Assembly: GCA_020846435.1 (NCBI GenBank)
Contig: JADLDY010000031.1
Span: 21,557 to 85,556, forward strand
Direction of reading: 5' to 3'
Length of the DNA stretch: 64,000 nt
Source: Deltaproteobacteria bacterium
GTDB lineage: Bacteria > Desulfobacterota > GWC2-55-46
Under the pieces are notes generated by a model. That model worked only from the letters and a program-made list of their open reading frames with translations. It was not told the origin of the DNA and ran no database searches. The position numbers and the translations under genes are program-made. This document shows positions 16,329-61,568 of this stretch, in pieces; positions within the stretch are counted from its first letter, which is position 1, and the number at the start of each line of letters is the position of its first letter.

Positions 16329-16432
16329 CCAGGACTGCCTCAAGCTCTCTATTTGCGTCGAGGCAAAAGCGGCGCACAGGCAAAGTACGCCTCACTCCTT
16401 GACGCCTGGAAGCTGAGACTTTTTGAGCAGTC
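16329..16432. repeat. Intergenic repeat family B (copy R1)
   Basis: ...gcctcaagctc...aaaagcggcgcacaggcaaagtacgcctcactccttgacgcctgga.gctgagactttttgagc. Lies between convergent genes. Confidence 0.5.
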
Positions 16433-16470
16433 TTGAATGTTTGGATTTGTCAGCGGTCCTGTAATCCGCT

Positions 16471-17001
16471 TCAGAGCGCGCCTTTGAGTGCGCGGCTGTA
16501 GATCTCAAGGTCCCTGTCAGAGAAGAGCACGAACCTGACGAGGTCGAGGCCGTCATTTTCCCTTATGAAGCCGATGACCGTTGAGACCGCTATTCTGGAG
16601 GCCTCTTCAACAGGGTAGCCGTAGGCCCCTGTGCTGATGGAAGGGAAGGCGAGAGATTTCAGATTTTTTTCCAGGGCGAGAGCGAGGCTCGAAAGGTACG
16701 CGCTGCGTAGCATGGAAGACTCGCCATGCTTGCCGTCTTTGTAGACCGGGCCGACGGTGTGTATTACATGCTTTGCCCTGAGAGCGCCGCCTGTCGTGAT
16801 GACTGCGTGCCCTGTTGGGCAGTTTCCTATCTTTCTGCACTCCGACATTATCGCGGGGCCGCCGGATGAGTGTATTGCCCCGTCCACGCCGCTGCCGCCA
16901 GAGAGGGTCGTGTTCGCGGCGTTCACAATCGCGTCAGTCTCTTCGAGTGTGATATCCCCCCTGACAAGGGAGACCGTGGTGGCGTTGACCTTCGTTTCCA
17001 T
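16471..17001 (-). CDS. Macro domain protein (O-acetyl-ADP-ribose deacetylase / ADP-ribose binding, YmdB-like)
   Basis: VNAANTTLSGGSGVDGAIH and ITTGGAL macro motifs. Confidence 0.85.
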   Translation of the reverse strand: METKVNATTVSLVRGDITLEETDAIVNAANTTLSGGSGVDGAIHSSGGPAIMSECRKIGNCPTGHAVITTGGALRAKHVIHTVGPVYKDGKHGESSMLRSAYLSSLALALEKNLKSLAFPSISTGAYGYPVEEASRIAVSTVIGFIRENDGLDLVRFVLFSDRDLEIYSRALKGAL

Positions 17002-17040
17002 TGCGAGCCTCCGTGCTTGGAGCGCTTCGTTTCCGGCTTA

Positions 17041-17610
17041 TCAGGCAGGCCTTCTCGCGATTATCCTGTAATGCGACTGGCTGAGCGGAGAGAGCTGGAC
17101 AACGTCAAATCCCGCGTCCTCTACAAAGCTTCTTGCTTCCTTGTCGGATATTCTCTCTTCGAGAGGCGGGCCTTTTTCTTCGGCCTTCTTGGCCCAGTCG
17201 AGGAGAAGCAGGGTCGCCCCGGGCTTCATCACCCGTTTTATCTCCTGAAGGAGGCGGCCCTTGTCAGGTGTTTCGTGCAGTACGAAGGCCAGGAGTGTGA
17301 AATCAGCCTCATAGTCTGCGATAGGTATCTCGTACTCCTCGGACTTCATGAGTATGACATTGTCCGGAGGGTTTCTCTTGTCGCGAAGGTCCAGGAGCAT
17401 CTCTTCTTGCGTGTCGACCGCGAAGGCAAGGCCCATGGGGCCGATTATCCTGGCCGCTGGTATGGTGAAAAACCCCGGGCCAGAGCCTATGTCCGCGAAG
17501 ACCTGCCCCTGCTTGAGCCCGGCTTCTCTCAATAACTTTTCAGGGGAGAGTTCGCTGTGTCTCTCCTCGCTCATGAGGCGCTCTAAATGTCCCGGGTTGA
17601 ATTTGTGCAT
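17041..17610 (-). CDS. Class I SAM-dependent methyltransferase
   Basis: VFADIGSGPGFFT motif I; small UbiE/ArsM-like fold. Start abuts the stop of the upstream membrane protein gene. Confidence 0.75.
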   Translation of the reverse strand: MHKFNPGHLERLMSEERHSELSPEKLLREAGLKQGQVFADIGSGPGFFTIPAARIIGPMGLAFAVDTQEEMLLDLRDKRNPPDNVILMKSEEYEIPIADYEADFTLLAFVLHETPDKGRLLQEIKRVMKPGATLLLLDWAKKAEEKGPPLEERISDKEARSFVEDAGFDVVQLSPLSQSHYRIIARRPA

Positions 17611-18087
17611 TCAGATGCCTCCCGCCCTGATGAAGATCGCGAAGAGCGCTATGAAAAGGGCTATGATGAGGTTTGTCCTGCCGAAGATCCTGGCCATCTT
17701 GGCGTGCTTCGGCGAGTTCCTCGCTTTCGGGCCTATCCAGAAGTCGTGGACAAGGGCGCTTATGACGATTAAGGTCACGAGCGCTATCTTGCCTATGACC
17801 GCCTTGCCGAAGCCGGTAGAGTAGAAGGCCGGGTCAAAGAGGCTGGAAAAGCCCACGCCGTAGAGGGAGTAGAGCAGGAACGGGCCTGTTACAAGCAGGG
17901 TTATTATGGCTATCCATCCCCAGAACCTGTACTGTTTGCCCACGATCTGGAATATCTGGCTCTTGGCCTTGGGGTCGGGTATCGTCTTCAGGAACGGGGC
18001 GATGACGAGGACTAAAAAGAGCATGCCCCCTATCCAGAATATGGCTGAGATTATGTGGAGTAAAAGAGCTGCCTTGAGGACCATCCG
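17611..18087 (-). CDS. Small polytopic membrane protein, CopD-like (HxxxxxxWxGG)
   Basis: HIISAIFWIGG motif, 4-5 TM. ATG at 18087 preceded by AAGGAGG; the ORF-track start at 18165 is less likely. Confidence 0.45.
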   Translation of the reverse strand, partial: RMVLKAALLLHIISAIFWIGGMLFLVLVIAPFLKTIPDPKAKSQIFQIVGKQYRFWGWIAIITLLVTGPFLLYSLYGVGFSSLFDPAFYSTGFGKAVIGKIALVTLIVISALVHDFWIGPKARNSPKHAKMARIFGRTNLIIALFIALFAIFIRAGGI

Positions 18088-18193
18088 GAAAGCCTCCTTA
18101 TGGAATGAGTACGGGTATGATAATAACCCAATACGAGAGGTCTTTCCATGACCAAAATCAACCATTGCACAGGGCGTATCTTTCCGGACTGTC

Positions 18194-18502
18194 TTACTTT
18201 TTAACCTCTTTGCCGAGCCTCTTCTCGACGCTCTTCAGTTTTTCGGTTATCCTGTTCTGGGGTTTGCCCGGCCTTATGTCCAGATGTATGCTCGTCAGTA
18301 CCCTCGGGGCGGTGTTTAATACCTCGTCCTGGCATTTCCTGATGACGGCCATTACCTTGTCCCAGTCGCCTTCGATGACTGTGGACATGGCGTTCGCCCT
18401 GTACGGCAGCCCGCTCTCCTCGACTATCTTCAGAACTACCGCTATGTGCTCTCCCATGCTCTCGCCAGAGCCTATCGGCACTACGCTGAATTCGGCAAGC
18501 AT
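18194..18502 (-). CDS. MTH1187/YkoF family protein (DUF77)
   Basis: 102 aa; AEFSVVPIGSGESMGEHIA N-terminus typical of the family. Confidence 0.7.
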   Translation of the reverse strand: MLAEFSVVPIGSGESMGEHIAVVLKIVEESGLPYRANAMSTVIEGDWDKVMAVIRKCQDEVLNTAPRVLTSIHLDIRPGKPQNRITEKLKSVEKRLGKEVKK

Positions 18503-18550
18503 CTCTCTCTCCTTTTTGTCATCTCAGCAGTTGTTTTTCAGACTCTGAGC

Positions 18551-19561
18551 CTAAAGCTCGACGCCGTCTATCTTCGCGCCGCATGAAGGGCAATCAGAGT
18601 CGACGATCGAATTTTTTTTAACGACGAAGCCGCGCCTTTCAATAAGCATTGAATGGCAGTTCCAGCAGTAGGTCGATTCTCCCTTGATGCCTGGGATGTT
18701 GCCGGTGTATACATAGCGGAGCCCCTCTTCGAGCCCTATTTGCCTGGCCATCTCGAGCGTAGAGGCCGGGGTCGGGTCGACATCCATCATCTTGTAGGAC
18801 GGGTGGAAGGCGCTCAGGTGCCAGGGCATGCTCTTGTCTGTCTTGTATATCCACTTCGCGAGAGCCCGGAGCTCGTCAATGCTGTCGTTCATGCCCGGTA
18901 TGACAAGGGTCGTCAACTCGACCCATATGCCCATTTGCCGCATCGTCTCGACGCTCTCTAAAACCGGCGCGAGGGTGGCTCCGCAGACCTTCTTGTAAAA
19001 GGATTCGCTGAAGGCCTTTATGTCGACGTTCGCGGCATCGAGGAGCCCGTCGAGGGCGCTGAGGCACTCTCGAGTCATGTAGCCGTTGGTCACGAATATG
19101 TTCTTGAGCCCCCTTTCCTTCGCTATCGCCATTGTGTCACAGGCATACTCGAAGAATATCGTCGGCTCGGTATAAGTGTAGGATATTGAGGAGCAGCCGG
19201 TCTCATACGCCTCGGCGGCAATCTCTTCCGGGGTGACCTCGCTTCCGTCGACCTCCCCTCTCTCCCTCGGCATCTGGGATATCTCCGAGTTCTGGCAGTG
19301 GAGGCACCTGAAATTGCAGCCAGCCGTCGCGATGGAGTAGGAGCGGGACGCGGGCTGGAAATGAAAGAGCGGCTTTTTTTCTATGGGGTCGATGTTCTCG
19401 GCCACGAGGCGGCCCCACGTGTGCGTGAAGAGGGTGCCGTCAATGTTCTCGCGCACCCCGCATATGCCCCTTCTGCCTTCCCTGATGTGGCAGCGGAAAG
19501 AGCACAGGGCGCACTTGACGCTGTTTTTTTCCTCTTTGCTGTAGAGCCTTGCTTCCATCAT
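18551..19561 (-). CDS. Radical SAM enzyme, PFL-activating-enzyme-like (AmmeMemoRadiSam-type) with C-terminal zinc ribbon
   Basis: CNFRCLHC (Cx3Cx2C) cluster motif, N-terminal CALCSFRC...GICGVREN, C-terminal CWNCH...CPSCG. Confidence 0.8.
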   Translation of the reverse strand: MMEARLYSKEEKNSVKCALCSFRCHIREGRRGICGVRENIDGTLFTHTWGRLVAENIDPIEKKPLFHFQPASRSYSIATAGCNFRCLHCQNSEISQMPRERGEVDGSEVTPEEIAAEAYETGCSSISYTYTEPTIFFEYACDTMAIAKERGLKNIFVTNGYMTRECLSALDGLLDAANVDIKAFSESFYKKVCGATLAPVLESVETMRQMGIWVELTTLVIPGMNDSIDELRALAKWIYKTDKSMPWHLSAFHPSYKMMDVDPTPASTLEMARQIGLEEGLRYVYTGNIPGIKGESTYCWNCHSMLIERRGFVVKKNSIVDSDCPSCGAKIDGVEL

Positions 19562-19651
19562 CTTGCCGGAGAGTCCTTTCAGAATATGAGTATGGATTAA
19601 GGGCCGCCTCTTCATGCGGCCCGTCTTGAGCGTTGGTCTTTACCGCGGCTG

Positions 19652-20185: not shown

Positions 20186-20211
20186 GATGTGCCTCCATGG
20201 TTGTACTACCA

Positions 20212-21261: not shown

Positions 21262-21271
21262 CCATTGCCTC

Positions 21272-24016: not shown

Positions 24017-24123
24017 TTTCAGTTGTCCGGTTTGAGGTTTTTCCGGAATGCAGTAAGCCGCTGGGCCTTTCGGCCCAGCGGCTTACTGTGAACCGGCTTT
24101 CTTGCCGAGCGTTTGCTTGCTGT

Positions 24124-25155: not shown

Positions 25156-25195
25156 TGGCGACTCCTTTGTTTAGATTCAGATTCGCTTGAGTCGA

Positions 25196-25322
25196 TCAGT
25201 CTGTTCAAAAAGCTCCATATGCAAGGCGTCGAGGAGCAAGGCGCGAGGCGTACTTTGCATGTACGTCGCAGAGGCGAGCTTTGATGCCAACGACGCAGAT
25301 GGACTTTTTGAGCGGACTGAAT
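25196..25322. repeat. Intergenic repeat family B (copy R5, inverted orientation)
   Basis: Reverse complement reads gctcaaaaagtccatctgcgtcgttggcatcaaagctc...gcaaagtacgcctcgcgccttgctcctcgacgccttgcatatggagctttttgaac. Confidence 0.5.
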
Positions 25323-25379
25323 AAAAAAAGGGGAAGGCCAATCGGCCTTCCCCTTGAGAGATTCAATGATAAAAAGGGA

Positions 25380-28739: not shown

Positions 28740-30026
28740 ATGGAAAAGGCTCAGAGTCAACTGGACAGGTTCATCGTGACCGGGGAAGGCGGGGCGCTTG
28801 TGCCCTTCGCGCTCGCCGGCGCGGCTTCCGTTATTTTACTTGTCGTAGAGATGTATACGGGCGCGGCTCTCGTGAAGGCGCTCCTTCTGGCGGCCCTTGT
28901 CCTCGCGGCCGGCCTTGTCCCGGTCCATGTCTTCAGGCGCCGTTCAATCAGGCTCTCTGAAGTGGACAACGAGGAGATAATAAGGGAGCTTGCCGAAAGG
29001 ACGCGCCATTACACCTCCCGCAGGGAGAGGCTCGAGAGGTTTTTGAGCGCGCAGCATGAGGTGAACAGGCTGATAGACGGACACCTCAAGGACGTCATCG
29101 GCCAGACAGGGGAAGCCGCCTCGCGGATAATAGGCAAATCCCAGGACATTGACTCTTCGATGAACATGATGCGCTCGACCATAAACGCGCTCCAGAGACA
29201 GACCGAGGAGCTCGCCGAGTCGTCGAGCAGGACGATCGAGGACAACGAGAAGAGCATCAACGGCCTCAGGGACTACATAGACAAGAGAAGGGCCGACGTT
29301 GACAACGACTACAAGACAGTCCTCGCCCTTGCCGAGGACGCCAGATCCATGACAAGCCTCGTCGAGCTTTTAAAGGAGATAAGCGACCAGACGAACCTCC
29401 TTGCCCTGAACGCGGCGATAGAGGCCGCGCGGGCCGGAGAGCACGGCAGGGGATTCGCGATAGTGGCCGACGAGGTAAGAAAGCTATCGAAGCATTCAGA
29501 GCAGGCCGCAGGCAAGATAGGACAGGCAATGATACGGATGGCGGACGAGATAGAGGGCAAGTTCGCGTTGAAGCTCAACCAGGACAGGAACAGCCAGGAG
29601 TCGGGCCTCCTTGAGAGCCTCGAAGGCCAGCTCGAAAGCCTGGGGACGAGCTACCGCAGCCTCGACGGCCTCAACAGGCAGGTGCTCGACGAGGTAGGCT
29701 CTTCCAGCGAGAGGGTGGCCTCTGAAGTGCTCGAGCTCCTCGCCGGGGTGCAGTTTCAGGACATAGTCCGCCAGCAGGTCGAGCTCGTCATGAAGGCAGT
29801 GGACGAATGCGACGGGTTTGCGGCTTCTTTGCAGTCGTGCCTGAAGGACGAAAACCTCTGTACCGGGGAGTGCAGGATAACGGAGTTCGACCCCGAGGAC
29901 ATAAGGAAGCACTATGTAATGGAAAAGCAGAGGGAGACGCACGCGTCGGTAGTCGTGCCCTTTCCAGGCAGGCATGCCGCTCAGGAGACGAGGCAGGCCG
30001 CGAACAGCGAGATAACTTTCTTTTAA
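28740..30026 (+). CDS. Methyl-accepting chemotaxis protein, short form (membrane hairpin, no periplasmic domain)
   Basis: Two adjacent TM segments, then MA signalling domain with [39 protein letters not shown]-terminus ends EITFF. Confidence 0.8.
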
Positions 30027-33011: not shown

Positions 33012-34697
33012 ATGGATTTCTTAAGGAATCTCAAAACCCGGTCCAAGCTGTTTTTGAGTTTCACCGTGCTCATCGTTTTCGTGCTCGGGCTCGGAGTGCT
33101 CAGCATCAACAGGATAGGCGAGATGCGCTCCATGATTCAGACGCTCTACGCAGACAGGTTCGTCCCGGCGGTCGACCTTGGCAAGATAAACAACCATCTT
33201 GCCTTCATCAGGATAGGCGCCCTCCAGATAATGAACGAGACTGACAAGGTCAGGAAGCAGGAAATATGGAACAAGGCGGCCGAGTCTGCAGAGGAGACGG
33301 ACAAGCTCATAACCAAGTACGGCGCCACCGAGATGGTTGAAGAAGAGCAGAAGGTCTTCGACGCGCTCAAATCCTCCTGGGCGAGCTACAACGCTTCGCG
33401 CCTTGCGACCTACAAATTGGCGCTTGACGGCGAGAACGTGAAGGCCAAGGAGAACGCGATAACCGACGCAGGCCCCAAGTTCAAGGTCCTTGACGGGAAC
33501 GTGGTAAGGCTCATCGAGATACAGGACGAAGTGGGGCAGGCCCTCAACAAGGAAGCTGACAACGATTACGCCTTCACAAGGAACGTCGTCATAGCCGCAA
33601 CCGTGGTCTCTGTTGGCATAGGCGCCGCGCTCGCGCTCATCCTTACCACACTGATCGCCAGGCCTCTGGTCGAGGTGACGGGAGTCGCCAACAGGCTCGC
33701 CGATGGAGACCTCAGCGTGGACATCGACGCGAAGGGCAAGGACGAGATAGGCGAGCTCACCACCGCGTTCAAAAACATGGTCGGCAAGCTGCGCGAAGTC
33801 GTCTCTGACGTAAGGGCGGTCTCCGACAACGTCGCCTCAGGCGCGCAGGAATTGAGCTCAGGAGCCCAGCAGATCTCCCAGGGCGCGACCGAGCAGGCGG
33901 CCTCTATTGAGGAGACCTCCTCGTCGATGGAGCAGATGACCGCCAACATCAGGCAGAACTCGGACAACGCGCAGCAGACGGAAAAGATTGCGCATAAGTC
34001 CGCGACCGACGCCAAAGAGAGCGGCCAGGCCGTGACCGAGACGGTAGTCGCGATGAAGGAGATAGCTTCGAAGATATCCATAATAGAAGAGATAGCGAGG
34101 CAGACGAACCTCCTCGCCCTGAACGCCGCGATAGAGGCCGCGAGGGCCGGAGAGCACGGCAAGGGCTTCGCGGTTGTCGCTTCCGAAGTAAGAAAGCTCG
34201 CGGAAAGAAGCCAGACGGCTGCCGGAGAGATAAGCCACCTGTCAGCCTCCAGCGTGCAGATAGCCGAGAAGGCCGGAGAGATGCTCGCCAGGCTCGTCCC
34301 GGACATCCAGAAGACCTCAGAGCTCGTGCAGGAGATAACCGCGGCGAGCGCAGAGCAGAACTCAGGCGCCGACCAGATAAACAGGGCGCTCCAGCAGCTC
34401 GACCAGGTCATCCAGCAGAACGCCTCAGGCGCCGAAGAGCTCGCGTCTACCTCGGAAGAGCTCTCCGGGCAGTCTGAACAGCTCCAGAGGTCCATCGCCT
34501 TCTTCAGGGCCACGGGCGCTTCAGCTCCCGCCGCCAATGTAGTGCAAATAAACAGGGCGAAGCCCGCGCACAAGGCAAAACCGTCGCATCAGGCCCATCA
34601 GGCACGCAAGAGCGCGCCGCAGGCCGCGAACGGCGGGGTCGTCCTGAACCTCGGGACAGGCAGGGATGAAGAAGACGGCGAGTTCGTCAAATACTGA
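33012..34697 (+). CDS. Methyl-accepting chemotaxis protein with periplasmic four-helix-bundle sensor, HAMP
   Basis: TM1, about 150-aa helical periplasmic domain, TM2, HAMP, MA domain ([39 protein letters not shown]). Confidence 0.85.
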   Translation: MDFLRNLKTRSKLFLSFTVLIVFVLGLGVLSINRIGEMRSMIQTLYADRFVPAVDLGKINNHLAFIRIGALQIMNETDKVRKQEIWNKAAESAEETDKLITKYGATEMVEEEQKVFDALKSSWASYNASRLATYKLALDGENVKAKENAITDAGPKFKVLDGNVVRLIEIQDEVGQALNKEADNDYAFTRNVVIAATVVSVGIGAALALILTTLIARPLVEVTGVANRLADGDLSVDIDAKGKDEIGELTTAFKNMVGKLREVVSDVRAVSDNVASGAQELSSGAQQISQGATEQAASIEETSSSMEQMTANIRQNSDNAQQTEKIAHKSATDAKESGQAVTETVVAMKEIASKISIIEEIARQTNLLALNAAIEAARAGEHGKGFAVVASEVRKLAERSQTAAGEISHLSASSVQIAEKAGEMLARLVPDIQKTSELVQEITAASAEQNSGADQINRALQQLDQVIQQNASGAEELASTSEELSGQSEQLQRSIAFFRATGASAPAANVVQINRAKPAHKAKPSHQAHQARKSAPQAANGGVVLNLGTGRDEEDGEFVKY

Positions 34698-37440: not shown

Positions 37441-38498
37441 ACGCCAGAAAAAAGGTCCTCATAGTGGACGACTCGGCCGTTGTGCGCCGTGTCCTGACGA
37501 ACATCATCTCATCTGACGACGGGCTCGAGGTCATGGCGACCGCCTCTGACCCTTTCGTCGCGGCCGAGAAGATAGCTGCCGAGGTGCCGGATGTCATGAC
37601 GCTCGACATTGAGATGCCGAGGATGGACGGGCTTACCTTCCTCCAGAAGATAATGGAGCAGCACCCGATACCCGTCGTCATAATATCGAGCCTCGCTGGC
37701 AGCGGCACAGAGACGGCGATGAAGGCACTCGAGAGCGGGGCTGTCGAGATAATAGAGAAGCCGCAGTTAGGGACAAAGGAGTATCTGGAAGAGGCGTCGG
37801 TCTTCATCTGCGACGCTGTAAAGGCGGCTTCCCAGGTAAAGCCAAATCATGTGCGCCCCCCTTTGCCGGTGACTGCCAAGCTCACCGCCGACGCCGTTCT
37901 CCAGAAGAGCGGGGCTAAGGCCATGCTCAAGACGACCGAGAAGGTCATAGTCGTCGGGGCCTCTACCGGAGGGACAGAGGCGATAGCTGAGTTCCTCACA
38001 AACATGCCGCCTGATTCTCCCGGGATCGTCATCGTCCAGCACATGCCTGAGAGGTTTACAGCCGCCTTCGCGAAGAGGCTTGATTCGATATGCGCGATAT
38101 CGGTCAAGGAGGCCGAGGATAACGACACTGTCATAAGGGGGAGGGCGCTCATCGCCCCTGGCAACAGGCACATGCTCCTTAAAAGAAGCGGGGCGAGATA
38201 TTACGTCGAGATAAAAGACGGCCCGCTTGTCGCGCGCCACAGGCCTTCGGTAGACGTGCTCTTCCGTTCGGCGGCTTCCTACGCAGGCAAGAACGCCGTA
38301 GGAGTCATTTTGACCGGCATGGGGGACGACGGAGCGCTTGGCATGAAGGAGATGAAGGACGCCGGGGCAATAAACATCGCGCAGGACGAACATTCGTGCG
38401 TTGTGTACGGCATGCCTAAAGAGGCTATAAAGGCGGGCGGGGTGGATTTTGTGCTGCCGCTGAAGGCTATCTCCTCAAAAGTCCTCGCCGAGTGTTAG
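37437..38498 (+). CDS. cheB: Chemotaxis response regulator protein-glutamate methylesterase CheB
   Basis: N-terminal REC ([11 protein letters not shown]...D) plus CheB methylesterase ([18 protein letters not shown]). Confidence 0.9.
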
Positions 38499-38507
38499 CG
38501 GGCCTCT

Positions 38508-38722
38508 TTAAAAATCCCATCTGCTTTGTCGTCTTCGTCGCGGCAAAAGCGGCGTACAAAAAAGTACGCCTCACTCCTTGCTCCTCGTCTCCTCGCATCT
38601 GGAACTTTTAAAGAGGCCCGCCTGATGCTGATTTTATTGACGCCTGTCGTGTCAGAAAACCAATCTGCTTATGCAGTCAGCGTCGCGGTAAAAGCGGCGT
38701 ACAAAAGAGCACGCATCAGCTG
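38508..38722. repeat. Intergenic repeat family B (copy R2: one full unit plus a partial second unit)
   Basis: cccatctgctttgtcgtcttcgtcgcggcaaaagcggcgtacaaaaaagtacgcctcactccttgctcctcgtctcctcgcatctggaactttt..., then a second cgcggtaaaagcggcgtacaaaagagcacgc. Confidence 0.5.
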
Positions 38723-40842: not shown

Positions 40843-41198
40843 TGGTGGAGGCGGTGGGAATCGAACCCACGTCCGGAAACGCTTACCCGTTTCTTCTACA
40901 TGCTTAGCCCGCAGATTTAGTCTCGCTCCCCTGCTCTCTGCAGGCAAGTTTCAGGAAAGCCAGTCCGGTTGTGTCTCGCCCCCAGGTCCTTCGGACAGAG
41001 CCCCGGGGGCCATCCTGCTTATTGTCGTCCTGCAAACCCCGCAGGAAAAGGTCTGCCGGACGCTGGCGGTTTCTTAGGCAGCCAGAGCGTATTCGTAGTC
41101 GTTGCCGACTGTGTTTGCCTACCTTTTTTTACGAGAAGATAGTTAACTCGGCATGCTTCACCCGGACTCAGACCGTCCCGTCGAAGCCAGTCGCCCCC
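40843..41198 (-). ncRNA. ssrA: tmRNA (transfer-messenger RNA)
   Basis: Minus strand starts GGGGGCGACUGGCUUCGACGGG and ends ...GGACGUGGGUUCGAUUCCCACCGCCUCCACCA (T-arm plus CCA). Internal ORF ends ...GNDYEYALAA-stop. Confidence 0.85.
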
Positions 41199-42282: not shown

Positions 42283-44433
42283 TCAGGCGGCTTTTTTGCT
42301 CTTTTTGAGGTGAAGAACCTTTGTCTGGACAAGGCGGGCTTCTTCTGTCTGCCTGCCCGTAATCCTGAAGACCTCGACGGTCGCCTTGAGGTTTGTGGCG
42401 AGTTCGGCCATCTCCTGGCTCGCCTTCGCTATCTGCTGGGCGCTGGCTGATGTCTCGTTTATAACGTCAGCGACGGCAGATATGTCGCCGCTTATCTGCT
42501 CGGTGGCGGCGGACTGCTGTTCTGTCGCGGTAGTCACCTGGTGGACCATCGAGGTGACGACGTCGACCTTGTTGACTATCTCGCTCAAAGCATCCCCTGC
42601 TTCCTGTGCGAGCCTGACGCCCTTTTCAACTGCGTATACCTCTTCCTGCATCGAGGAGATGGCCTTGCCGGTCTCGTCCTGCATGGCCTTTATCATCTCG
42701 CCGATCTCCTTTGTCGCCATCATGGTCTTTTCTGCGAGTTTTCTTACCTCGTCGGCTACCACGGCGAATCCTCTGCCCTGCTCTCCGGCCCTTGCCGCCT
42801 CTATCGCCGCGTTCAAGGCAAGCAGGTTGGTCTGGTCGGCGATGTCGTCTATGACGTTCACTATGTTGCCAATCTGGTTTGAGCGTTCGCCGAGGGCCGA
42901 GATTATCGCGCTCGATTCCTTCGCGGTTCCGGCTATCCCGTGCATCGAGGTTATGGTCTCGGAGACTATGCGCCCGCCCTTTACGGCAACAGAGCTTGCT
43001 TCCCTGGCGGCGTCGGCCGCGCTCGAGACGTTCCTGGCGACCTCGATGATCGTCGCGCTCATCTCCTGGGTCGCGGTCGAGACCTGTGCGGCCCTCGAGC
43101 TCTGCGACTGCGAGCCTCCAGCTATCTGCACAGCGGAGGCCGAGAGCTCCTCAGAGGACGACGCGAGGTGCTCGATCGACGAGTGAAGGTCTTTCACTAT
43201 GCCGTGGAATTTGCCTATCATGCTGTTGAAGGACGATGCCATCTGGCCGTTCTCGTCCTTGGAGGCCACATCGATCGAGAGTGTGAGGTCGTTGGTTTTT
43301 TCTATGTTGGACATGGCCTCGTTCATGCGCGTGAGAGGCTGTACGACCTTGCTGCTTACCACGATCATGCTGAATATGCCGAGGCCGATGATCGCGAGCG
43401 TGAAGACGAAGGCGATGACCATGTTGCGTTTGGAAGCCGCGAGGTCAGCCATCACGGGCGCGTCGACCATGGCTCCGACCGCCGCCGAGACCGCAAGGAT
43501 CGAGTCTATGGCCTCTGAGCTCTTCTCTATCCACTCCTTGCCTGTGATCGGGTACTGTCCTGTCGAGGCGGCTTCCATCACGGATTTGCGCACCGCTTCA
43601 AAGCTGCCCAGGTATATCGACTCCATCTTCGAGAGGGCTTCGAGCACCTCCCTGTTGATGCCGTTCATGTTCTTGACGCGAAGGACGGGCTTTAAGTTTA
43701 TATCGACTACCGCCTTGAATGTGTTGAGCTTCTGCATGCCTTCCGCGTCGACTGGCGTGCCGGACGAGACGAACTTGGCGAGCGCGGCCCGCTCCCTTCC
43801 GGCGTACTCGCTCACGAGCCACAGGGCCTGCTTGAGCTCGAGGTTCATGCGCAGCGCCTGCTGGTTCGTATCCTTGCTGGCGCTGGAGGAGAAGGCCGCG
43901 AGCCTTGTTTCGGAAGCGGCGTCGATAAGCGTTGTCGTGAACTTTATCCATTCCTGCGGAGAGTAGCTCTTCTGGGCTTTTTCAACTTCGTTGTCGACGG
44001 TGCGCCTGAGCGTCGTGAGCTCTCCCTGGAGCCGTTCAAGCTCCCTTACGGAGGAGTTGAAAAGCTTGTTCTCATTGTCAGTCTCCTGAAATTCTTTTGA
44101 GAGCTCGAAGGACTTCTTGAGGGATTCGTCAAGTCTGGAGCGTACGTCCTGGATCTTCTGGAGCAGCGTCCCTTCGGCAGGCTTGTCTGAGGAAAGGGCG
44201 GTCGCTGTAAATCCTCTTTCCTTGGCCGCGAACCCGGCGGCGGCTAACAGGTTGTCTGCCAACTCGTTGGCTATGTCGACCCTGCCGGTCTCCTTGTAGC
44301 TGCGCCATGTGTCGAGCGCGATCGATGCTGACAGCCCAGCCAGAACCAGCACGAGCGTGCCGATAACCGCCAGCATGAAATTCCTGATGCTGATTCGCTG
44401 CAAAAAACGCATAGAACCTCCTGAGTAGTGCAT
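42283..44433 (-). CDS. Methyl-accepting chemotaxis protein with large (about 300 aa) periplasmic sensor domain
   Basis: TM1, periplasmic domain, TM2, HAMP, MA domain ([39 protein letters not shown]). Confidence 0.85.
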
Positions 44434-49684: not shown

Positions 49685-49812
49685 AAAAATTGCTCTTTTT
49701 CCCGATCTCTTCGTTAGGGCGGAAGTTAAAAATGCTCACATATAAATATATATGCTCCGCTTTTTACTTCCACCCTGCCTCGACCTCGGAAAAAATATCT
49801 AATTTTTAGAGC
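49685..49812 (+). repeat. Intergenic repeat family A, copy 3
   Basis: aaaattgctctttttcccgatctcttcgttagggcggaagttaaaaatgctcacatataaatatatatgctccgctttttacttccaccctgcctcgacctcggaaaaaatatctaatttttagag. Sits between purH and purD, antisense to them. Confidence 0.6.
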
Positions 49813-51405: not shown

Positions 51406-51497
51406 TTGAAACCTTTCCTCCTTACGGATTGAGGCTGCTGAAAAAGTCCCGTCTGGAACTTTTTGAGCCGCCTTCGCTGATTTATGAAGTAGCCTGA

Positions 51498-55238: not shown

Positions 55239-55245
55239 TCAACCT

Positions 55246-57167: not shown

Positions 57168-57476
57168 ATCAACTATTTTATAGCATTAATGGTGGGCTGT
57201 GTGAAGCGAAAAACAGAATTGTGAGCAACTGCTCACCTCCGGCGCGCGTCCCTGTCTGAAGACTATACCACAAACGCGTTTTTTTGGACATCCGTGGCGG
57301 GTTACGGTTTTGCTTTAGAATGCTGAAAAAGCCTTCCCTGGACTTTTTCAGCCACGGCTTGCCCGAAGTGAATTCGTGCAAGCCTTGCAAATTGCTCGCC
57401 TTTTGAGTCTCGCAATTTGGCAATACATCCTGTATTGCTTGGAAGGTTGCGTTTTCGCAACCTTCTAATTCCCCCT

Positions 57477-57504
57477 TTAACAAGGGGGAATGATAATGTA
57501 TAAT
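57477..57504 (+). promoter_or_regulatory. Candidate sigma70-like promoter (TTAACA-16-TATAAT) upstream of the sugar-modification operon
   Basis: -35 TTAACA at 57477, -10 TATAAT at 57499; a ccccctttaacaaggggg hairpin overlaps the -35. Confidence 0.35.
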
Positions 57505-57635
57505 GCTCAAGGTCGGTTCCGGCCCTGACCCGTTGTTTTTTTTGGATAAAGTAGCAAGGCTGTTCTCCCGATAATATGTGTTGTGTCAAAAGCCCCACGG
57601 CAGGAAAATCGGGGCTGACGGAGGCGCGCGAACCG

Positions 57636-58646
57636 ATGTTGAAAATCGCCATAATCGGATACGGCTACTGGGGTCCGAACCTTTTGAGGAACTTCTCTCT
57701 CGTCGACGGCTGCGAGGTTGCGGCCGTCGTTGACAGGAGAGAGGAGAGGCTCAGGGCCGTAAAGCGCCTCTACCCAGCGGTCGACGTCTACACCTCGGCC
57801 GAGGAGGTCATGAAAGACCCGTCGATAGACGCTCTCGTCGTGGCTACCCCTGTGTTCTCCCATTACCCGCTGGCGTCAGAGGCCCTCTCAAAAGGCAAGC
57901 ACGTGCTCATAGAGAAGCCCATGACCACTTCGAGCGCGGACGCAACAGAGCTCATCGAGCTGGCGCAGAAAAAAGGGCGCGTCCTCATGGTCGACCACAC
58001 ATTCCTTTATACCGGCGCGGTAAAGAAGATAAAGGATATCGTCGACATGGGCGTCATCGGACGCCTCCAGTACTTCGACTCGGTCAGGATAAACCTGGGC
58101 CTTTTCAACCCCGAGGTCAATGTCGTCTGGGACCTCGCCCCGCACGACATCTCCATACTGCTGCACATAAACAACGAGATGCCCGAGAGCGTAATAGCGA
58201 CCGGCATATCCCACACGCACAACTCGATAGAGAACATCGCCTACATAACGCTCAACTACCAGTCGAACCTCATAGCCCATTTCCACTGCTCGTGGTCCTC
58301 TCCCGTGAAGATAAGGAAGATCCTCATCGGCGGGACGAACAAGATGATAATGTTCGACGACGTAGAGCCCACGGAAAAGCTCCGCGTGTACGACACGAGC
58401 TACAAGGTGAGCCCGGTATCGGATGAGGACAAGTACAACATCCTCGTCGACTACCGCCTCGGCGATATATTCCTGCCGAGGGTCAGCCAGGAGGAGGCCC
58501 TCTCAGGGGTGGCCAAAGACTTCATATCGGCCATATCAAAGGGCACGGAGCCGGTGTCCAACTGGAAGAACGGGCTCGGCGTGGTAAAGGTTCTGGAAGC
58601 GGCGCAGAAGTCAATAAAGTCGAGGGGCAGGGAAGTCAAAATTTGA
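57636..58646 (+). CDS. Gfo/Idh/MocA family NAD-dependent sugar oxidoreductase (WbpB-like)
   Basis: [11 protein letters not shown] Rossmann motif; ATG 57636 with GGAGG RBS; 4-bp overlap with the downstream aminotransferase. Confidence 0.8.
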
Positions 58647-59737
58647 AGATACCGTTTTTCGACCTTAAGAGGCAGCACGCAAGGCTTAAAAAAGAGATAA
58701 CAGAGGCGATCACCGTTGTCATGGACGACACCGCCTTCTCGGGCGGGCCGTACGCCGATGAGTTCGAGAAGAGCTTCGCCAAGTACTGCTCCACGCGCCA
58801 CGCCGTTGGAGTCGGCAGCGGCACCGACGCGCTGCACCTTGTAATGCGGGCCCTTGACATCGGCCCCGGAGACGAAGTCATACTGCCCGCCAATACCTTC
58901 ATAGCGACAGCCTGGGGCATATCCTACGTTGGCGCGAAGCCGGTTTTCGTCGACTGCGACCCTGACACATGGAACATTGACCCATCTAAAATCGAAGCGA
59001 AGATAACCGAGAGGACAAAGGCGATAATCGGGGTGCACCTCTACGGCCAGCCCTTTGACATCGACGCTGTACAGGCCATAGCGCAAAAACACCTTTTAAA
59101 GCTTGTCGAGGACTGCGCGCAGGCCCAGGGCGCTCTGTACAACGGCAGGAAGGTCGGCGGCTTTGGAGTGGCCGGATGTTTCAGCTTCTATCCGGGCAAG
59201 AACCTCGGGGCATACGGCGAAGCCGGGGGCGTCGTCACGAACGACCCGTCTATCGACGCCCGCTTGAGGGCGCTCAGGAACCACGGCTCGACAGCGAAGT
59301 ACTACCACGACGAGCTCGGATTTAACATGAGGCTCGACGGCATTCAGGCCGCGGTCTTATCGGTCAAGCTCAGGTATCTCGACGAGTGGAACGCGAGGCG
59401 CCGCGCTATCGCCCGCATGTACCTCGAAGGCATAAGAAATAAGAAGATAAGGACGCAGAAACCAGAGCCCGGAGCTGAGTCTGTCTATCACCTCTTCGTC
59501 GTGGCCACAAAGGACAGGGACGGGCTTAAAAAGCACCTTGAGGCCAACGATGTCTGGCCGGGCATACACTACCCGGTTCCTTGCCATCTGCAGAAGGCCT
59601 ACAGCCACCTCGGATACAAGAAAGGGGACTTCCCTCAGTCGGAAGCCCTGGCCGATGGATGCCTCTCTCTCCCCATGTTCCCTGAGCTTACCGACGAAGA
59701 GGCGTTAAGGGTAATAGAAGTGATAAACCGTTATTGA
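58643..59737 (+). CDS. DegT/DnrJ/EryC1/StrS family PLP-dependent sugar aminotransferase (WbpE-like)
   Basis: Conserved DegT pattern including the PLP lysine region ([16 protein letters not shown]). Confidence 0.85.
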
Positions 59738-59744
59738 GGCCAGC

Positions 59745-60470
59745 ATGAGCGAACAGGAAAAAAATATGCTCGAGGAGAACTCGAGCCTTTATCTCGCGCC
59801 AGACCCTGGCAGGGTGGTCGACCAGAAGGTCTCGAAATATATGGTCGAAAAGATGTTCGGACGCCTCAAGGGCCCAAAGATCCTCGAGATGGGCTTTGGC
59901 GACAACTACTGGACAGCCCATATCATTGAGAAGTTCGGGCAGGCCTACATTGTCGACGCTTCCGAGAGCCTCCTCGAGAAGGCAAAAGAGATATACGGCA
60001 GCAAGGTCACGACCTTCGTCTCGCTCTTTGAGACCTTCGAGGCAAAAGAGAAGTTCGACACGGTTCTGGCGACCTTTGTCCTCGACCATGTCGCAGACCA
60101 CATGGCCGTCCTGAAGCAGGCCCGCACCTGGCTTGCCGAAGACGGAGTCCTCATAATCATGGTGCCGCACGCTCTCTCCCTGCACAGGCGGCTCGCCGTG
60201 TGCATGGGCATGCAGAAGGAAGAGACCGACCTCGGCGAGACAGACCTGCAGCTTGTCCACAGGAGAGTCTTCACGATAGAGCGTCTTGAAAAAGACCTCT
60301 CAAGCCTCGGCTACAGGGTCGTCAGAAAGGGCGGCATGCTCTCAAAGGCGCTCCCCCAGGGCATGATGACGGAGTACAGCGACGAGATACTCAAGGGGCT
60401 CGTCGAGCTAGGCTCGGTACTGCCGATGGAGTACGCGGCGGTGCTTGTCTATGAATGCGCAAAAGCCTGA
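59745..60470 (+). CDS. Class I SAM-dependent methyltransferase
   Basis: ILEMGFGDNY motif I, 241 aa. Confidence 0.7.
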   Translation: MSEQEKNMLEENSSLYLAPDPGRVVDQKVSKYMVEKMFGRLKGPKILEMGFGDNYWTAHIIEKFGQAYIVDASESLLEKAKEIYGSKVTTFVSLFETFEAKEKFDTVLATFVLDHVADHMAVLKQARTWLAEDGVLIIMVPHALSLHRRLAVCMGMQKEETDLGETDLQLVHRRVFTIERLEKDLSSLGYRVVRKGGMLSKALPQGMMTEYSDEILKGLVELGSVLPMEYAAVLVYECAKA

Positions 60471-60591
60471 CAGGCGGCTGAAAACCCATAGCGAGCGAAT
60501 CCCCGCAGCTAAAGCTGCGGGGTAAGCGAGCGAATAGAAAATCGAAACTTCCTTAGGTTTCGAAGCTCTCCTCGCTTGCCGAGGGAAGCTT

Positions 60592-60712
60592 CAAAAAGGC
60601 CCATCTGCATCGTTGTCAGCGTCACTCGTAACTGCGGCGTACAAGAAGAGTACGCCTCGTTTCTCGCTCCTTGACGCCTTGCATCTGGACCTTTTTGAGC
60701 CGCCTGTAAAAA
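60592..60712. repeat. Intergenic repeat family B (copy R3)
   Basis: aaaaaggcccatctgcatcgttgtcagcgtc...gcggcgtacaagaagagtacgcctcg...ctccttgacgccttgcatctggacctttttgagc. Confidence 0.5.
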
Positions 60713-60742
60713 AAACTAACCTGTCAGTCCAGGGACGGATTA

Positions 60743-61429
60743 ATGATAAAAGATTCGATACAGGTGGTGGCCCTCGCTTACAATGAGGAGGACACGATAG
60801 GTGAGGTCCTCAAGAGGACCCATGAAGTGCTCAGCAGGAACTGCGAGAGGTTCGAGGTCGTCGCCTTTGACGACGGCTCGACCGACCGCACCTCCGACAT
60901 TTGCGACGAGTTCGCCTCTAACCACCCGCACACGAAGGTCATCCGCAACAAAGAGAATAAGGGGATAGGATATCTCCTGCGTGAGACCTATTTGCGCGCC
61001 AGCTGCGAGTGGACCGTAATAGTCTGCTCTGACATGCAGTTCGACCCTTATGACCTCGAGAAGTTCTTTCCGTATCTCAAGGACAACGACATCATCATCT
61101 CCGCGAGGGCGAAGCGCCAGGACAGGGCCATAAGGAAGTACATCTCGTCAATCGACAAGCTCCTTTTGAAGCTCCTTTTTTCGGCTTCCTTTCAGGACCT
61201 CCACTGGATAAAGTTCGTGCGCAAAAACTTCCTCGATAAGGGGTCGATAACGGCCTCTTCCCCGTTCGTCGAGACCGAGATACTAATAAGGGCGAAAAAA
61301 AAAGGGGCGAGGATAAAAGAGTTTACAGTCCCGCATTATCCGAGGATGCACGGTGTGGCAAAGGGCGCGCGCCTCTCGAACATCATAAAGTCGGTGAGGG
61401 ACCTGGTCGTTCTTTTTTTCAAGATATGA
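60743..61429 (+). CDS. Family 2 glycosyltransferase (DPM1-like, short)
   Basis: GT-A N-terminus with DDGSTD (DxD-type) motif. Confidence 0.75.
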   Translation: MIKDSIQVVALAYNEEDTIGEVLKRTHEVLSRNCERFEVVAFDDGSTDRTSDICDEFASNHPHTKVIRNKENKGIGYLLRETYLRASCEWTVIVCSDMQFDPYDLEKFFPYLKDNDIIISARAKRQDRAIRKYISSIDKLLLKLLFSASFQDLHWIKFVRKNFLDKGSITASSPFVETEILIRAKKKGARIKEFTVPHYPRMHGVAKGARLSNIIKSVRDLVVLFFKI

Positions 61430-61440
61430 TCCACTGAGAT

Positions 61441-61568
61441 TAGACAGGTTGCCCAAAAGGTTCCAGATGCGAGGAGTCGAGGGGCGAGGAATGAGGCGTA
61501 CTTTGCTTGTACGCCGCTTTTGACGAGCTTTGAAGACGACAATGCAGATGGGGCTTTTGAGCGGCCTG
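61441..61568. repeat. Intergenic repeat family B (copy R4, inverted orientation)
   Basis: Reverse complement reads gctcaaaagccccatctgcattgtcgtcttcaaagctcgtcaaaagcggcgtacaagcaaagtacgcctcattcctcgcccctcgactcctcgcatctggaacctttt. Confidence 0.5.

Follow-up and report, generated by a model that had tools for sequence, protein, structure and literature searches.

In GTAG-tagged REP elements, one stem end bears an unpaired, TAG-containing motif, and this motif often doubles as the stop codon of the neighbouring ORF (PMC3733652). The dispersed repeat analysed here, family B, resembles REPs, BIMEs and REPINs in that it is made up of extragenic palindromes that are present in high copy number and mainly 3' of genes, lacks target-site duplications, shows compensatory stem changes between subfamilies and bears an unpaired stop-like triplet at one stem end. 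GTAG-tagged REPs, BIMEs and REPINs are mobilised by RAYT Y1 transposases, and REPINs fold into hairpins of about 100 nt. Family B, in contrast, forms a single hairpin of ~125 nt with a conserved apical module (REPs are 20–40 nt, or paired self-palindromic REPs), its tag is YTAR or TGA instead of GTAG, and its core is conserved over many phyla, while most REPs are confined to a genus or an order. RAYTs mobilise REPs, but no copy-flanked RAYT was found for family B, and about 1.3 Mb of fetched sequence showed no RAYT homologue beside a copy. Unlike REP and ERIC, the repeat has no match in E. coli genomes; Rfam 15 and plasmids likewise gave no match, and no element was confirmed in viral contigs.

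ERIC/IRU and Correia-type MITEs are imperfect intergenic palindromes of about 105–160 bp (PMC3184786). Family B is like them in size, imperfect palindromic structure and intergenic location. Elements of the ERIC and Correia type are co-transcribed, occur in either chromosomal orientation and can alter mRNA fate; ERIC is conserved across genera, and Correia elements duplicate a TA target. Family B shows no consistent duplication and, unlike both, abuts stop codons exactly and in one orientation. Among IS200/IS605 elements, IS608 inserts 3' of TTAC and ISDra2 3' of TTGAT. Like these elements and PATEs, family B lacks a duplication, and it would share with them the insertion 3' of a short specific sequence (the flank of the GAYGG subfamily reads TTGA-YGG, the hyphen marking the boundary), strand-specific action and hairpin dependence, but they have two short subterminal hairpins and, in autonomous copies, tnpA, whereas family B has one long hairpin with no associated tnpA found. 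Vibrio VCRs are attC sites of ~125 bp, and family B is similar to them as an imperfect hairpin of ~125 nt at an ORF 3' end, in fixed orientation and with irregularities on one strand; it differs in having no core sites, arrays or integrase and in adjoining housekeeping genes. Finally, the order of A-run, stem and T-run directly 3' of stop codons, often between convergent genes, recalls bidirectional intrinsic terminators. The 'loop' of family B, however, contains a conserved core of ~75 nt, its copies are mutually homologous, some come after an existing terminator, and a simple terminator scan makes no calls at them.

The window, a stretch of 64,000 nucleotides from a deltaproteobacterial contig, contains six copies of full length, two of which are degenerate, together with a half copy and one or two mini-hairpins (Table 1). 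Family B is a genuine dispersed family: the copies listed in the preliminary description were recovered alike by repeat search, by MAFFT alignment and by R1, a covariance model built from 20 window-like copies, and full copies lie on both strands, as had been claimed. R1 E-values reach about 1e-39 for the window's own copies, which is expected since the model was built from them. Hairpin z-scores of −5.8 to −6.9 on the G-rich strand are far above chance. Some boundaries had to be redrawn. The first copy, originally placed at 2800–3012, exists but ends at about 2914, and bases 2985–3010 resemble a fragment of another copy; the 1.5 units described at 38508–38722 are a full copy followed by a half copy. 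The suspected partial copy near 51437 is real as a pair of outer arms, whereas the one near 57320 is doubtful. Convergent (copies 2794, 16329, 38499 and 61441) and tandem (25193 and 60590) gene settings both occur, but the divergent setting that had also been reported applies to no window copy.

Table 1. Family B copies and related features in the window (positions in the window; strand, that of the C-rich sequence, in which the preliminary consensus was written; R1, covariance model; z, folding z-score).
Feature	Position	Strand	Evidence	Setting
Degenerate full-length copy	2794–2914	+ (C-rich strand)	R1 match 2792–2914, 28.4 bits; centre decayed; 5' arm matches 38494–38536 and 61522–61561 (repeat search)	Immediately 3' of uvrB stop TAG (2791–2793); uvrB assigned from reading frame and C-terminal sequence
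Copy with shortened 5' arm	16329–16438	+	R1 43.5 bits; direct and inverted repeat matches	Immediately 3' of ABC-2 permease gene stop TAG (16326–16328; Pfam); convergent Macro-domain gene ends at 16471 (Pfam)
Full copy	25193–25321	−	R1 129.5 bits; fold −60.8 kcal/mol, z −6.9 on G-rich strand	Between rpsI terminator (25320–25350) and argC (Pfam S9 and semialdehyde dehydrogenase); C-rich strand co-directional with both genes
Full copy	38499–38622	+	R1 match 38497–38624, 114.8 bits; fold z −6.2	Immediately 3' of CheB stop TAG (38496–38498)
Half copy: 5' arm and degenerate apical hairpin	38650–38718	+	Repeat 86% identity; MAFFT alignment; weak R1 match 38693–38717	Extends into stop codon (38716) of convergent flavin reductase gene
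Mini-hairpin, outer arms only, GCTGAAAAAGTCC-CGTCT-GGAACTTTTTGAGC	51429–51478		R1 29.8 bits; fold z −3.8; ~75-nt core absent	
Doubtful relative, A-run/T-run hairpin only	57314–57361		R1 8.6 bits, E about 2; 71% repeat identity; fold z −2.2	
Detached outermost 5' arm CAGGCGGCTGAAAA of 60590 copy	60471–60484	+	Complementary to 3' arm TTTTTGAGCCGCCTG at 60693–60707	Immediately 3' of methyltransferase stop TGA (60468–60470)
Insert of ~105 nt splitting 5' arm of 60590 copy	60485–60589		Small hairpins and two copies of AGCGAGCGAAT	Identical in strain L127
Main body of full copy	60590–60710	+	R1 match 60580–60710, 124.1 bits; fold z −5.8	Between tandem methyltransferase and GT2 genes (Pfam)
Full copy	61441–61568	−	R1 match 61441–61570, 125.6 bits; fold z −6.1	Immediately 3' of FemAB/GNAT-like gene stop TAA (61569–61571, minus strand); convergent GT2 gene ends at 61429; TCTAA on both flanks

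Each full copy is one long imperfect hairpin of ~125 bases. The apical stem of 7 bp is nearly invariant (GGCGTAC/GTACGCC), in agreement with the consensus and the internal GCGGCGTAC/GTACGCC palindrome noted earlier, and one strand has internal loops that are rich in purines and conserved (GAGGA/GACGA, CAAGG/CAACG and CA-GA-TG). The outer A-run/T-run arms vary by subfamily with complementarity kept, and the C-rich strand carries at its 5' end a stop-like triplet that stays unpaired (either YTAR or, within TTGAYGG, TGA). Conservation is highest at the centre and not at the ends. The supposed repeated CATCTG motif is not a separate direct repeat; it belongs to a palindrome in which CCA-GA-TGC faces GCA-GA-TGG of the other strand and the central GA/GA is mismatched. 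Across 88 copies, paired cells make up 91.7%, and compensatory changes occur at 33 of the 42 pairs. The covariation score is 0.428; shuffles give 0.163, none of the 500 attaining the observed value, and slid partners give at most 0.071. The two strands are not equivalent. Mismatches on the G-rich strand are purine:purine far more often than pyrimidine:pyrimidine (932 and 123), and this strand folds better than the C-rich strand in 116 of 133 cases, by a mean of 7 kcal/mol.

A sequence scan for the apical hairpin GAGGCGTAC-loop-GTACGCCGC matched at least 118 loci. Among the loci listed, carriers are MAGs or genomes labelled Deltaproteobacteria/Thermodesulfobacteriota, Nitrospirota, Methylomirabilota, Acidobacteriota, Gemmatimonadota and others, a range whose labels come partly from MAGs, so that binning errors could inflate its breadth. 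We collected 106 non-redundant full copies across 803 kb, and one further copy in 200 kb of unrelated rpsI loci; the estimated density is roughly one copy per 10 kb. Identity across phyla (0.63–0.83) is as high as that among the window copies (0.66–0.75).

Placement relative to genes is strongly asymmetric. In 53 of 106 copies, an ORF of 80 or more codons ends no further than 12 nt from the 5' end of the C-rich strand, the offset being 0 to +3 in 33 of these, while the opposite end has an ORF end within 12 nt in only 16 of 106 and no peak. Under greedy gene calling, the co-directional upstream gene stops no more than 10 nt before the element in 39 of 64 cases (median 2.5 nt), compared with 3 of 51 for convergent genes at its other end. 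Five of the six window copies abut the stop codon of a co-directional gene, the junctions being TAG-CAGG (uvrB), TAG-CCAGG, TAG-CGGG, TGA-CAGG and TAA-CAGG, with Pfam-supported genes adjoining; the flanking genes in the window are unrelated and of housekeeping type (uvrB, rpsI/argC, cheB, ABC-2, LPS-type). Proteins with element-abutting stops align through the last residue of their homologues, some of which were not scored as element-adjacent, and the abutting stop is therefore at its native position. Stop usage tracks subfamily, with TAG/TAA for CAGG and TGA/TAA for GAYGG. The stop-like tag is intrinsic to the element: in copies with no adjacent long ORF it is present in 8 of 14 of the CAGG group and 14 of 15 of the GAYGG group. 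In 85 of 133 cases (p=0.0017), the C-rich strand also lies on the strand that is richer in G locally, a bias confounded by the co-orientation of element and gene.

Comparison of strains points to turnover at the rpsI-argC spacer, where strains about 97% identical have copies that are scrambled and differ in orientation. The 38499 copy is present in strains L125 and L126, and its L125 version has a clustered 6-nt patch of changes that looks like gene conversion. We found no clean pair of empty and filled sites, and four sites are unchanged between strains 98.6–98.9% identical. Copies within one genome are old, being 66–75% identical, a point against present-day mobility. A matching duplication on the second flank was missing at 17 of the 18 copies examined, and the called ORFs of the fetched loci revealed neither a recurrent neighbour protein family nor a copy-linked transposase. 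The sole Y1_Tnp gene found, in L112, has unrelated TIRs of its own.

Several explanations can be set against these observations. The element could primarily be a cis-acting RNA, a 3'-UTR hairpin obliged to begin at the stop codon and kept by selection, with mobility secondary or extinct, a reading we consider possible though rather unlikely. It could then terminate transcription intrinsically in both directions, stabilise mRNA 3' ends or slow ribosomes during termination, the last a role that Liang, Rudd and Deutscher reportedly described in 2015 for E. coli REPs near stop codons. The exact, orientation-specific abutment of stop codons, the strong compensatory changes and the A-run and then T-run around the inner hairpin in both orientations are consistent with such a role, as are core conservation across phyla equal to that within one genome, conserved purine-rich loops with possible tandem G.A pairs, of a kind typical for RNA motifs, and mini-hairpins that carry the same outer arms and resemble plain bidirectional terminators, the hairpin at 51429–51478 being in essence one of these. 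Against it, the stop-like tag also occurs in copies with no adjoining gene, two window copies come after an existing terminator-like hairpin and one lies inside a probable operon, the terminator scan is silent, there is no Rfam family, and of the two strands it is the co-transcribed, C-rich one that folds less well. A further point in favour, the excess of wobble-type positions supporting the C-rich strand (286, against 183), is dominated by a few conserved columns and so does not represent independent events. The better folding of the G-rich strand (z near −6), the conservation of its purine-rich loops and an apical G.U variant (GTACGTCGC, 20 of 88 copies) that pairs on this strand only would instead suit independently transcribed small RNA genes. 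This is very improbable: two window copies showed no promoter-like sites, no conserved upstream motif is seen except partial arm duplications, the G-rich strand is antisense to the adjoining gene end in most copies, and roughly one copy per 10 kb would be atypical.

A classical MITE, that is, an internally deleted DDE-transposon moved by cut-and-paste, with an IS5-type enzyme of YTAR target as one candidate mover, would account for an inverted repeat over the whole ~125 bp, for a non-coding, multi-copy element in both chromosomal orientations, for the YTAR flank on one side and for TCTAA on both sides of the 61441 copy. We regard it as improbable, given the missing second-flank duplications, variable ends around a conserved centre (the reverse of what transposase-binding TIRs predict), the orientation-specific placement relative to genes and the lack of a transposase gene with the element's ends among the called ORFs of the fetched loci. 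The earlier proposal of a MITE/REP-like or structured-RNA/terminator-like family, as opposed to a gene-specific regulator, holds in its broad form, with unrelated flanking genes and many phyla, but not for a classical MITE, for which consistent duplication and a parent IS are lacking. Least probable of all, and hardly credible, are attC-like sites, on which a tyrosine recombinase would act as folded single strands and which would mark gene 3' ends as in integron cassettes. Size, imperfect hairpin, distinct irregularities on one strand and a start that meets or overlaps the stop codon of an ORF in the same orientation fit attC, but RYYYAAC/GTTRRRY core sites are absent, single copies lie between core housekeeping genes in both orientations with no co-oriented array beside an integrase, and the sequence, beyond structure alone, is conserved across phyla.

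We favour, at about even confidence, an oversized, tagged REP/REPIN-like non-autonomous palindromic element sited 3' of stop-like triplets. Known HUH systems have short subterminal hairpins, and the 125-nt hairpin here counts against a mobile element, as does conservation of the centre rather than the ends; the covariation and complementarity would also be expected from selection on an RNA hairpin. The weaker folding of the co-transcribed C-rich strand, for its part, sits awkwardly with a simple 3'-UTR hairpin role. If the REP-like reading is correct, copies would integrate orientation-specifically just 3' of a TAG-, TAA- or TGA-like target on one DNA strand, and a single-strand HUH/Y1-type mechanism may move them; integration 3' of a target on one strand is the mode of IS200/IS605-type HUH/Y1 transposases and of REP-associated RAYTs. 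Insertions at stop codons would survive because the gene is left intact. The inserted element would be co-transcribed with the upstream gene, probably giving a hairpin in the 3' UTR that has a U-run whichever way round it lies, and might stop transcription or shield the 3' end of the mRNA. Family B is the local representative of a large family of repeats, ~125 bp in size and palindromic over their whole length, for which we found no earlier description, and its most informative features, both absent from the preliminary description, are the orientation-specific placement of one end at the upstream stop codon and a core conserved across phyla.

Self-comparison of the window returned the family-B copies as direct and inverted repeats of 33–113 nt with 77–92% identity, and the copies could be aligned end to end. 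We also searched the window, with filters off, using R1, a covariance model built from 20 window-like copies. All three approaches concur that the dispersed repeat family proposed in the preliminary description is real, with about one copy per 10 kb; the copies are scattered between housekeeping genes across 59 kb, some in one orientation and some in the other (see table). Some limits of individual copies had to be redrawn. The first copy ends at about 2914 and not at 3012; a stretch at 2985–3010 (GATGGCAGATCTTTTGCTCA) resembles the 3' arm of an oppositely oriented copy and may be the remnant of a second copy beside the decayed one at 2794–2914. What had been described as half a unit at 38650–38718 is a partial copy, composed of a 5' arm and a degenerate apex. 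The copy at 60592 is present, with its outermost 5' arm lying apart at 60471–60484 across an insert of about 105 nt (60485–60589). This insert, which may itself be a further small element nested in the copy, consists of short hairpins such as CCCCGCAGCTAAAGCTGCGGGG together with a duplicated AGCGAGCGAAT; a similar palindrome of about 105 nt lies inside a family-B copy of the genome ORM2a (L081 5492–5598). In what follows the C-rich strand is the one on which the earlier consensus was written, and the G-rich strand is its complement, with the consensus GCTCAAAAAG-NTCC-AGATGCAAGGCG...GAGGAAT-GAGGCGTAC-loop-GTACGCCGC-AGTGACGA...CAACGCAGCAGATGG-NCTTTTTGAGC.

Features located in the window. A slash marks the junction between stop codon and element; bit scores of family-B copies refer to R1.
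Feature	Position	Strand	Score or basis	Junction
Family B, full copy	25193–25321		115–130 bits (range of the four full copies)	
Family B, full copy	61441–61570		115–130 bits (same range)	
Family B, full copy	60580–60710		115–130 bits (same range)	
Family B, full copy	38497–38624		115–130 bits (same range)	
Family B, shortened-arm copy	16329–16438		43.5 bits	
Family B, decayed copy	2792–2914		28.4 bits	
Family B, mini-hairpin	51429–51478		29.8 bits	
Family B, doubtful match	57314–57361		8.6 bits	
Stop codon, uvrB	2791–2793		named from sequence alone	TAG/CAGG
Stop codon, ABC-2 permease	16326–16328		Pfam	TAG/CCAGG
Stop codon, CheB	38496–38498		Pfam	TAG/CGGG
Stop codon, methyltransferase	60468–60470		Pfam	TGA/CAGG
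Stop codon, FemAB/GNAT-like	61569–61571	minus	Pfam	TAA/CAGG
D1 hairpin repeat	8909–9031			
D1 hairpin repeat	10634–10756			
D1 hairpin repeat	49687–49809			
Chemotaxis signalling domain	29371–29485		Pfam MCPsignal	
Chemotaxis signalling domain	34084–34219		Pfam MCPsignal	
Chemotaxis signalling domain	42716–42852		Pfam MCPsignal	
Ordinary terminator (R1 match)	12075–12113			
tmRNA gene	40843–41198	minus	Rfam, 184.9 bits; ARAGORN tag peptide GNDYEYALAA	

Other repeats in the window were separated from family B. An R1 match to an ordinary terminator was set aside as not a copy, and three repeats of 115–137 nt with 76–83% identity were dismissed as an element, being paralogous coding sequence in three genes for methyl-accepting chemotaxis proteins, where they encode the conserved signalling domain. 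The window also contains another family of hairpin repeats, D1, which is AT-rich; its units of about 125 nt match R1 weakly and fold with z-scores of −2.5 to −6.4. The D1 copies start 3–12 nt after the stops of a LemA gene (8903), a Zn-ribbon gene (10630) and purH (49822, minus strand), occur in both orientations relative to the upstream gene, and have counterparts 88–94% identical in two MAG loci (L049 and L059).

Family B extends well beyond the window. We scanned one genome per species with the apical pattern GAGGCGTACT-N3-8-TGTRCGYCGC and matched at least 118 loci, against a chance expectation that we estimate, for uniform base composition, at about 26. Nearly all of the matches listed share the architecture, with outer arms that are complementary and differ by subfamily, the main arm types being CAGGCTGCTCAAAAAG..., GACGGCTTCGTAAAAAG... 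and ...CATAAATGTGGATTTTTTTCGCTGGG.... The carrier records are mostly MAGs; among the matches listed, their labels include Deltaproteobacteria/Thermodesulfobacteriota, Nitrospirota, Methylomirabilota, Acidobacteriota, Gemmatimonadota, Zixibacteria, Omnitrophota, Bdellovibrionota and two Firmicutes. Trichlorobacter thiogenes, which is in culture, and ORM2a, a complete genome, are also among the carriers. In 803 kb, R1 gave 138 matches, some of them reverse-strand echoes; 106 non-redundant full-length copies remain from these. As a specificity control, 200 kb of unrelated rpsI loci, taken from a metagenome scan with ribosomal protein S9, yielded one strong extra copy and one weak match. Copies labelled as different phyla are 63–83% identical, and those within the window 66–75%. 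The eight pattern matches in viral contigs were none of them confirmed by R1, and searches of 5,426 E. coli genomes and of the PLSDB plasmids gave no match. REP, ERIC and Correia intergenic palindromes are known chiefly from culturable Proteobacteria. Against Rfam 15, at gathering thresholds, the window yields the tmRNA only, a search of 60500–61700 at E up to 10 gave nothing relevant, and 18 loci of other subfamilies returned only tRNAs and a ZTP riboswitch. Searches of the literature on MITEs and on Geobacter multicopy sequences turned up no description of the family; the repeat Chunjie (178–235 bp, with 9-bp direct repeats) was considered and is a different element. In a Thermodesulfovibrio MAG, a tRNA gene (4500–4586) lies between two tandem family-B-type copies (L036 4326–4746).

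The most informative result is the position of the copies. At five of the six window copies the 5' end of the C-rich strand adjoins the stop codon of a co-directional gene, and the sixth lies behind the rpsI terminator in the same orientation. Of the 106 copies, 53 have the end of an open reading frame of 80 codons or more no farther than 12 nt from the C-strand 5' end, and 33 of these ends fall within a 4-nt span; at the opposite end the figure is 16 of 106, lacking any peak. Using greedy gene calls, the upstream gene is co-directional in 64 of 101 copies and 39 of these 64 genes end within 10 nt of the element (median 2.5 nt), while convergent genes end within 10 nt of the opposite end in only 3 of 51 cases; an earlier and cruder orientation tally that ignored distance had shown no bias. 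Proteins with element-abutting stops align to the last residue of their homologues, some of which were not scored as element-adjacent. The genes are therefore complete, each ending at its native stop.

The stop-like triplet also occurs away from genes. Among copies that do not lie beside a long open reading frame it is retained in 8 of 14 of the CAGG subfamily and 14 of 15 of the GAYGG subfamily, being in the latter the TGA of TTGAYGG. It is part of the element itself or of the target. Stop usage differs by subfamily, with TAG/TAA for CAGG and TGA/TAA for GAYGG. On the G-rich strand the 3' flank of CAGG copies reads Y-T/C-A-R, with A at +3 in 15 of 18 and R at +4 in 17 of 18. A conserved unpaired tag, YTAR in CAGG copies and TTGA in GAYGG copies, is present at one end only; GTAG itself is found at 16325–16328, at the ABC-2 permease stop. 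The 5' flank of the 18 CAGG-type copies is unconserved and does not repeat the 3' flank, from which it follows that there is no target-site duplication, the one exception being copy 61441 with TCTAA on both sides.

Each full copy is predicted to fold as a single hairpin, long and imperfect, that is capped by one stem-loop. For the full window copies the G-rich strand as RNA reaches −53.7 to −60.8 kcal/mol (z −5.8 to −6.9) and the C-rich strand −39.2 to −47.9 kcal/mol (z −3.2 to −6.7). RNAalifold applied to a MAFFT alignment of all subfamilies recovered the apex only, so covariation was assessed on a model-guided alignment of 88 G-strand copies (A6) with its RNAalifold structure. Standard pairs occupy 91.7% of cells and 33 of 42 pairs show changes on both sides; the covariation score of 0.428 was reached in none of 500 column shuffles (0.163) and fell to 0.071 or less when partners were slid by 1–3 columns. 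Of the seven pairs that make up the core of the apical stem (GGCGTAC/GTACGCC), six never vary in the 88 copies, and one apical-stem pair has G-C in 67 copies but G.U in 20. The CATCTG motif, previously described as repeated, does not represent a direct repeat of its own and is instead a palindrome, CCA-GA-TGC/GCA-GA-TGG, with a central GA/GA mismatch. The idea that it marks the target duplication left by some inner element was rejected for this reason, and because in other subfamilies the position reads CATAGG/CATATG or CCGCAGG/CATCCGG. The arm mismatches are strongly skewed (932 purine:purine versus 123 pyrimidine:pyrimidine on the G-rich strand) and lie in the conserved loops GAGGA/GACGA, CAAGG/CAACG and CA-GA-TG, which could form tandem G.A pairs. 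The G-rich strand is the better-folding one in 116 of 133 copies because its purine:purine mismatches sit in these possible tandem-G.A loops. Wobble-type positions on this strand (183 G:T versus 286 A:C) point the opposite way but were discarded as an indicator of the selected strand, since a few conserved columns dominate the count. Strong complementarity is expected of an RNA hairpin, a single-strand DNA hairpin and transposase-binding inverted repeats, and makes no choice among them.

We compared these properties with known element classes. Like REPs, family B is high-copy, extragenic and found mainly downstream of genes; a REP, however, is an imperfect palindrome of 20–40 nt and a REPIN two inverted REPs, whereas family B is a single hairpin of about 125 nt, and an informal look noticed no REP-sized palindrome within either arm. 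The terminal inverted repeats typical of MITEs are present (outer arms such as CAGGCTGCTCAAAAAG/CTTTTTCAGCAGCCTG), but a target-site duplication of fixed length is not, and no parent IS with the same termini was found among 892 ORFs of the loci, plasmids and E. coli genomes. Integron attC sites differ in their core (RYYYAAC...GTTRRRY, against family-B termini of YTAR-CAGG...CCTG-AA/TA) and in forming co-oriented arrays next to intI/attI, where family-B copies are dispersed in both orientations among housekeeping genes. An intrinsic terminator is a short G+C-rich stem-loop with a U-run directly behind it; in family B the inner hairpin has a T-run after it on either strand, and the copies go uncalled in a consensus terminator scan, their 'loop' being about 75 nt long. 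The classical MITE, attC and sRNA-gene readings were each set aside on at least one tested feature. In its grammar family B resembles elements of the IS200/IS605 type, which insert 3' of a short target (TTAC for IS608, TTGAT for ISDra2). It also resembles GTAG-tagged REPs, in which an unpaired TAG-type tag is followed by a stem without duplication (2013, PMC3733652); the REP tag is GTAG or CGTC, that of family B YTAR or TTGA.

A partner enzyme was sought. Neither the window nor some 1.3 Mb of compared loci revealed a RAYT (Y1 transposase) flanked by copies, and the gene at 60743–61429, which lies between two inverted copies and was considered as RAYT-like, encodes a family-2 glycosyltransferase (Pfam). 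Clustering of the 892 ORFs around copies gave no recurrent partner or transposase, only generic families (histidine kinases, ABC ATPases, sigma-54 activators). A tblastn search of the compared loci with E. coli RayT found only a distant gene in a Desulfobacterales MAG (L112 3811–4900), encoding an IS200-like Y1_Tnp protein with a C-terminal HTH and bounded by its own 24-nt inverted repeats (GGGACGTATATCAGGTTATAAGTT). This gene matches the 'TIRtron' as defined in PMC3733652; it was rejected as a family-B partner because its inverted repeats are unrelated, though a family-B-type copy lies about 3.5 kb away. In 85 of 133 copies the C-rich strand coincides with the DNA strand that is locally richer in G (p=0.0017), a bias that is confounded by gene co-orientation and weakly informative in the window alone; it would fit exposure on the lagging-strand template.

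Strain variants retrieved by exact-protein look-up (a 97–99%-identical strain, ENA ERZ25039527, and a 100%-identical Logan contig) give a view of turnover. The other strain also has copies 16329, 38499, 60590 and 61441, two of them identical and one with a clustered 6-nt patch of changes that looks like conversion from another copy. The rpsI–argC spacer differs. In the window and in locus L120 it contains one copy, whose C-rich strand runs in the direction of rpsI. In L119 a scrambled copy comes first and an oppositely oriented one after it, and BACT1 (L082, about 80% identical) has a mini-element and a copy oriented like this second one of L119. These differences indicate turnover and local rearrangement of family-B copies between strains, and some copies contain nested insertions. 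No clean empty site was seen among the strain variants compared, and the S9 metagenome relatives, at most 66% identical, were of no use for that comparison. Among L119–L124 and ERZ25039527 contig_25337, several short metagenome contigs end 100–230 nt after rpsI, and the 337-kb contig seems to begin where the window has its mini-hairpin (51429–51478); metagenome assemblies seem to break at family-B repeats. A strain about 97% identical has an extra HDOD/HD-domain gene (L119 4733–5824) where the window, at 24020–24120, has only some 100 nt with a terminator-like hairpin, a presence/absence difference unrelated to family B.

Family B is thus a cross-phylum family outside Rfam of hairpin repeats of about 125 nt, with a conserved apex and covarying arms. 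It carries a stop-like tag at one end, abuts native stop codons exactly and in one orientation, and shows no duplication. We suggest that it is, or once was, propagated through single-strand integration of the HUH/Y1 kind directed by the tag, for which stop codons would be sites where insertion is harmless. An inserted element would then be transcribed with its upstream gene, giving the mRNA a 3'-UTR hairpin that has a U-run whichever way round it lies; this hairpin may end transcription or make the transcript more stable. Counting against such integration, neither a linked enzyme nor an empty site was found, the copies are old, and it is the centre that is conserved rather than the ends. The main rival is that the hairpin is primarily a selected RNA element, obliged to begin at a stop codon; against this, the tag is present away from genes too, some copies lie behind existing terminators, and the co-transcribed strand is the one that folds less well.

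A bolder proposal, which we regard as improbable, is that family B, rather than junk or an ordinary MITE, is a cross-phylum functional module obliged to start at the stop codon, either a translation-coupled 3'-end RNA or a new class of single-hairpin single-strand DNA transposon, whose invariant apex and GA-rich loops would bind a putative conserved protein. As an RNA, its base would be opened by the terminating ribosome, coupling translation termination to transcription termination, mRNA decay or ribosome rescue; as a transposon, it would use stop codons as safe-harbour targets.

The preliminary reading of a MITE/REP-like element or structured RNA/terminator holds insofar as this is a palindromic repeat of the REP/REPIN/MITE-like kind among housekeeping genes, and is not supported for a classical MITE, there being no duplication. 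Family B is set apart from known repeats of this kind by its size, its cross-phylum core and its stop-codon placement. Annotation could mistake the repeats for small ORFs; as markers, they could help to distinguish lineages or strains. If family B is mobile, tag-directed, duplication-free (HUH-like) mobilisation would extend to a new and much larger substrate, and stop codons would be shown as safe insertion sites; if it is a functional RNA, it would be a widespread 3'-end element missing from Rfam. Its interest would be considerably higher if the placement reflects a translation-coupled RNA function or a new single-hairpin transposition.
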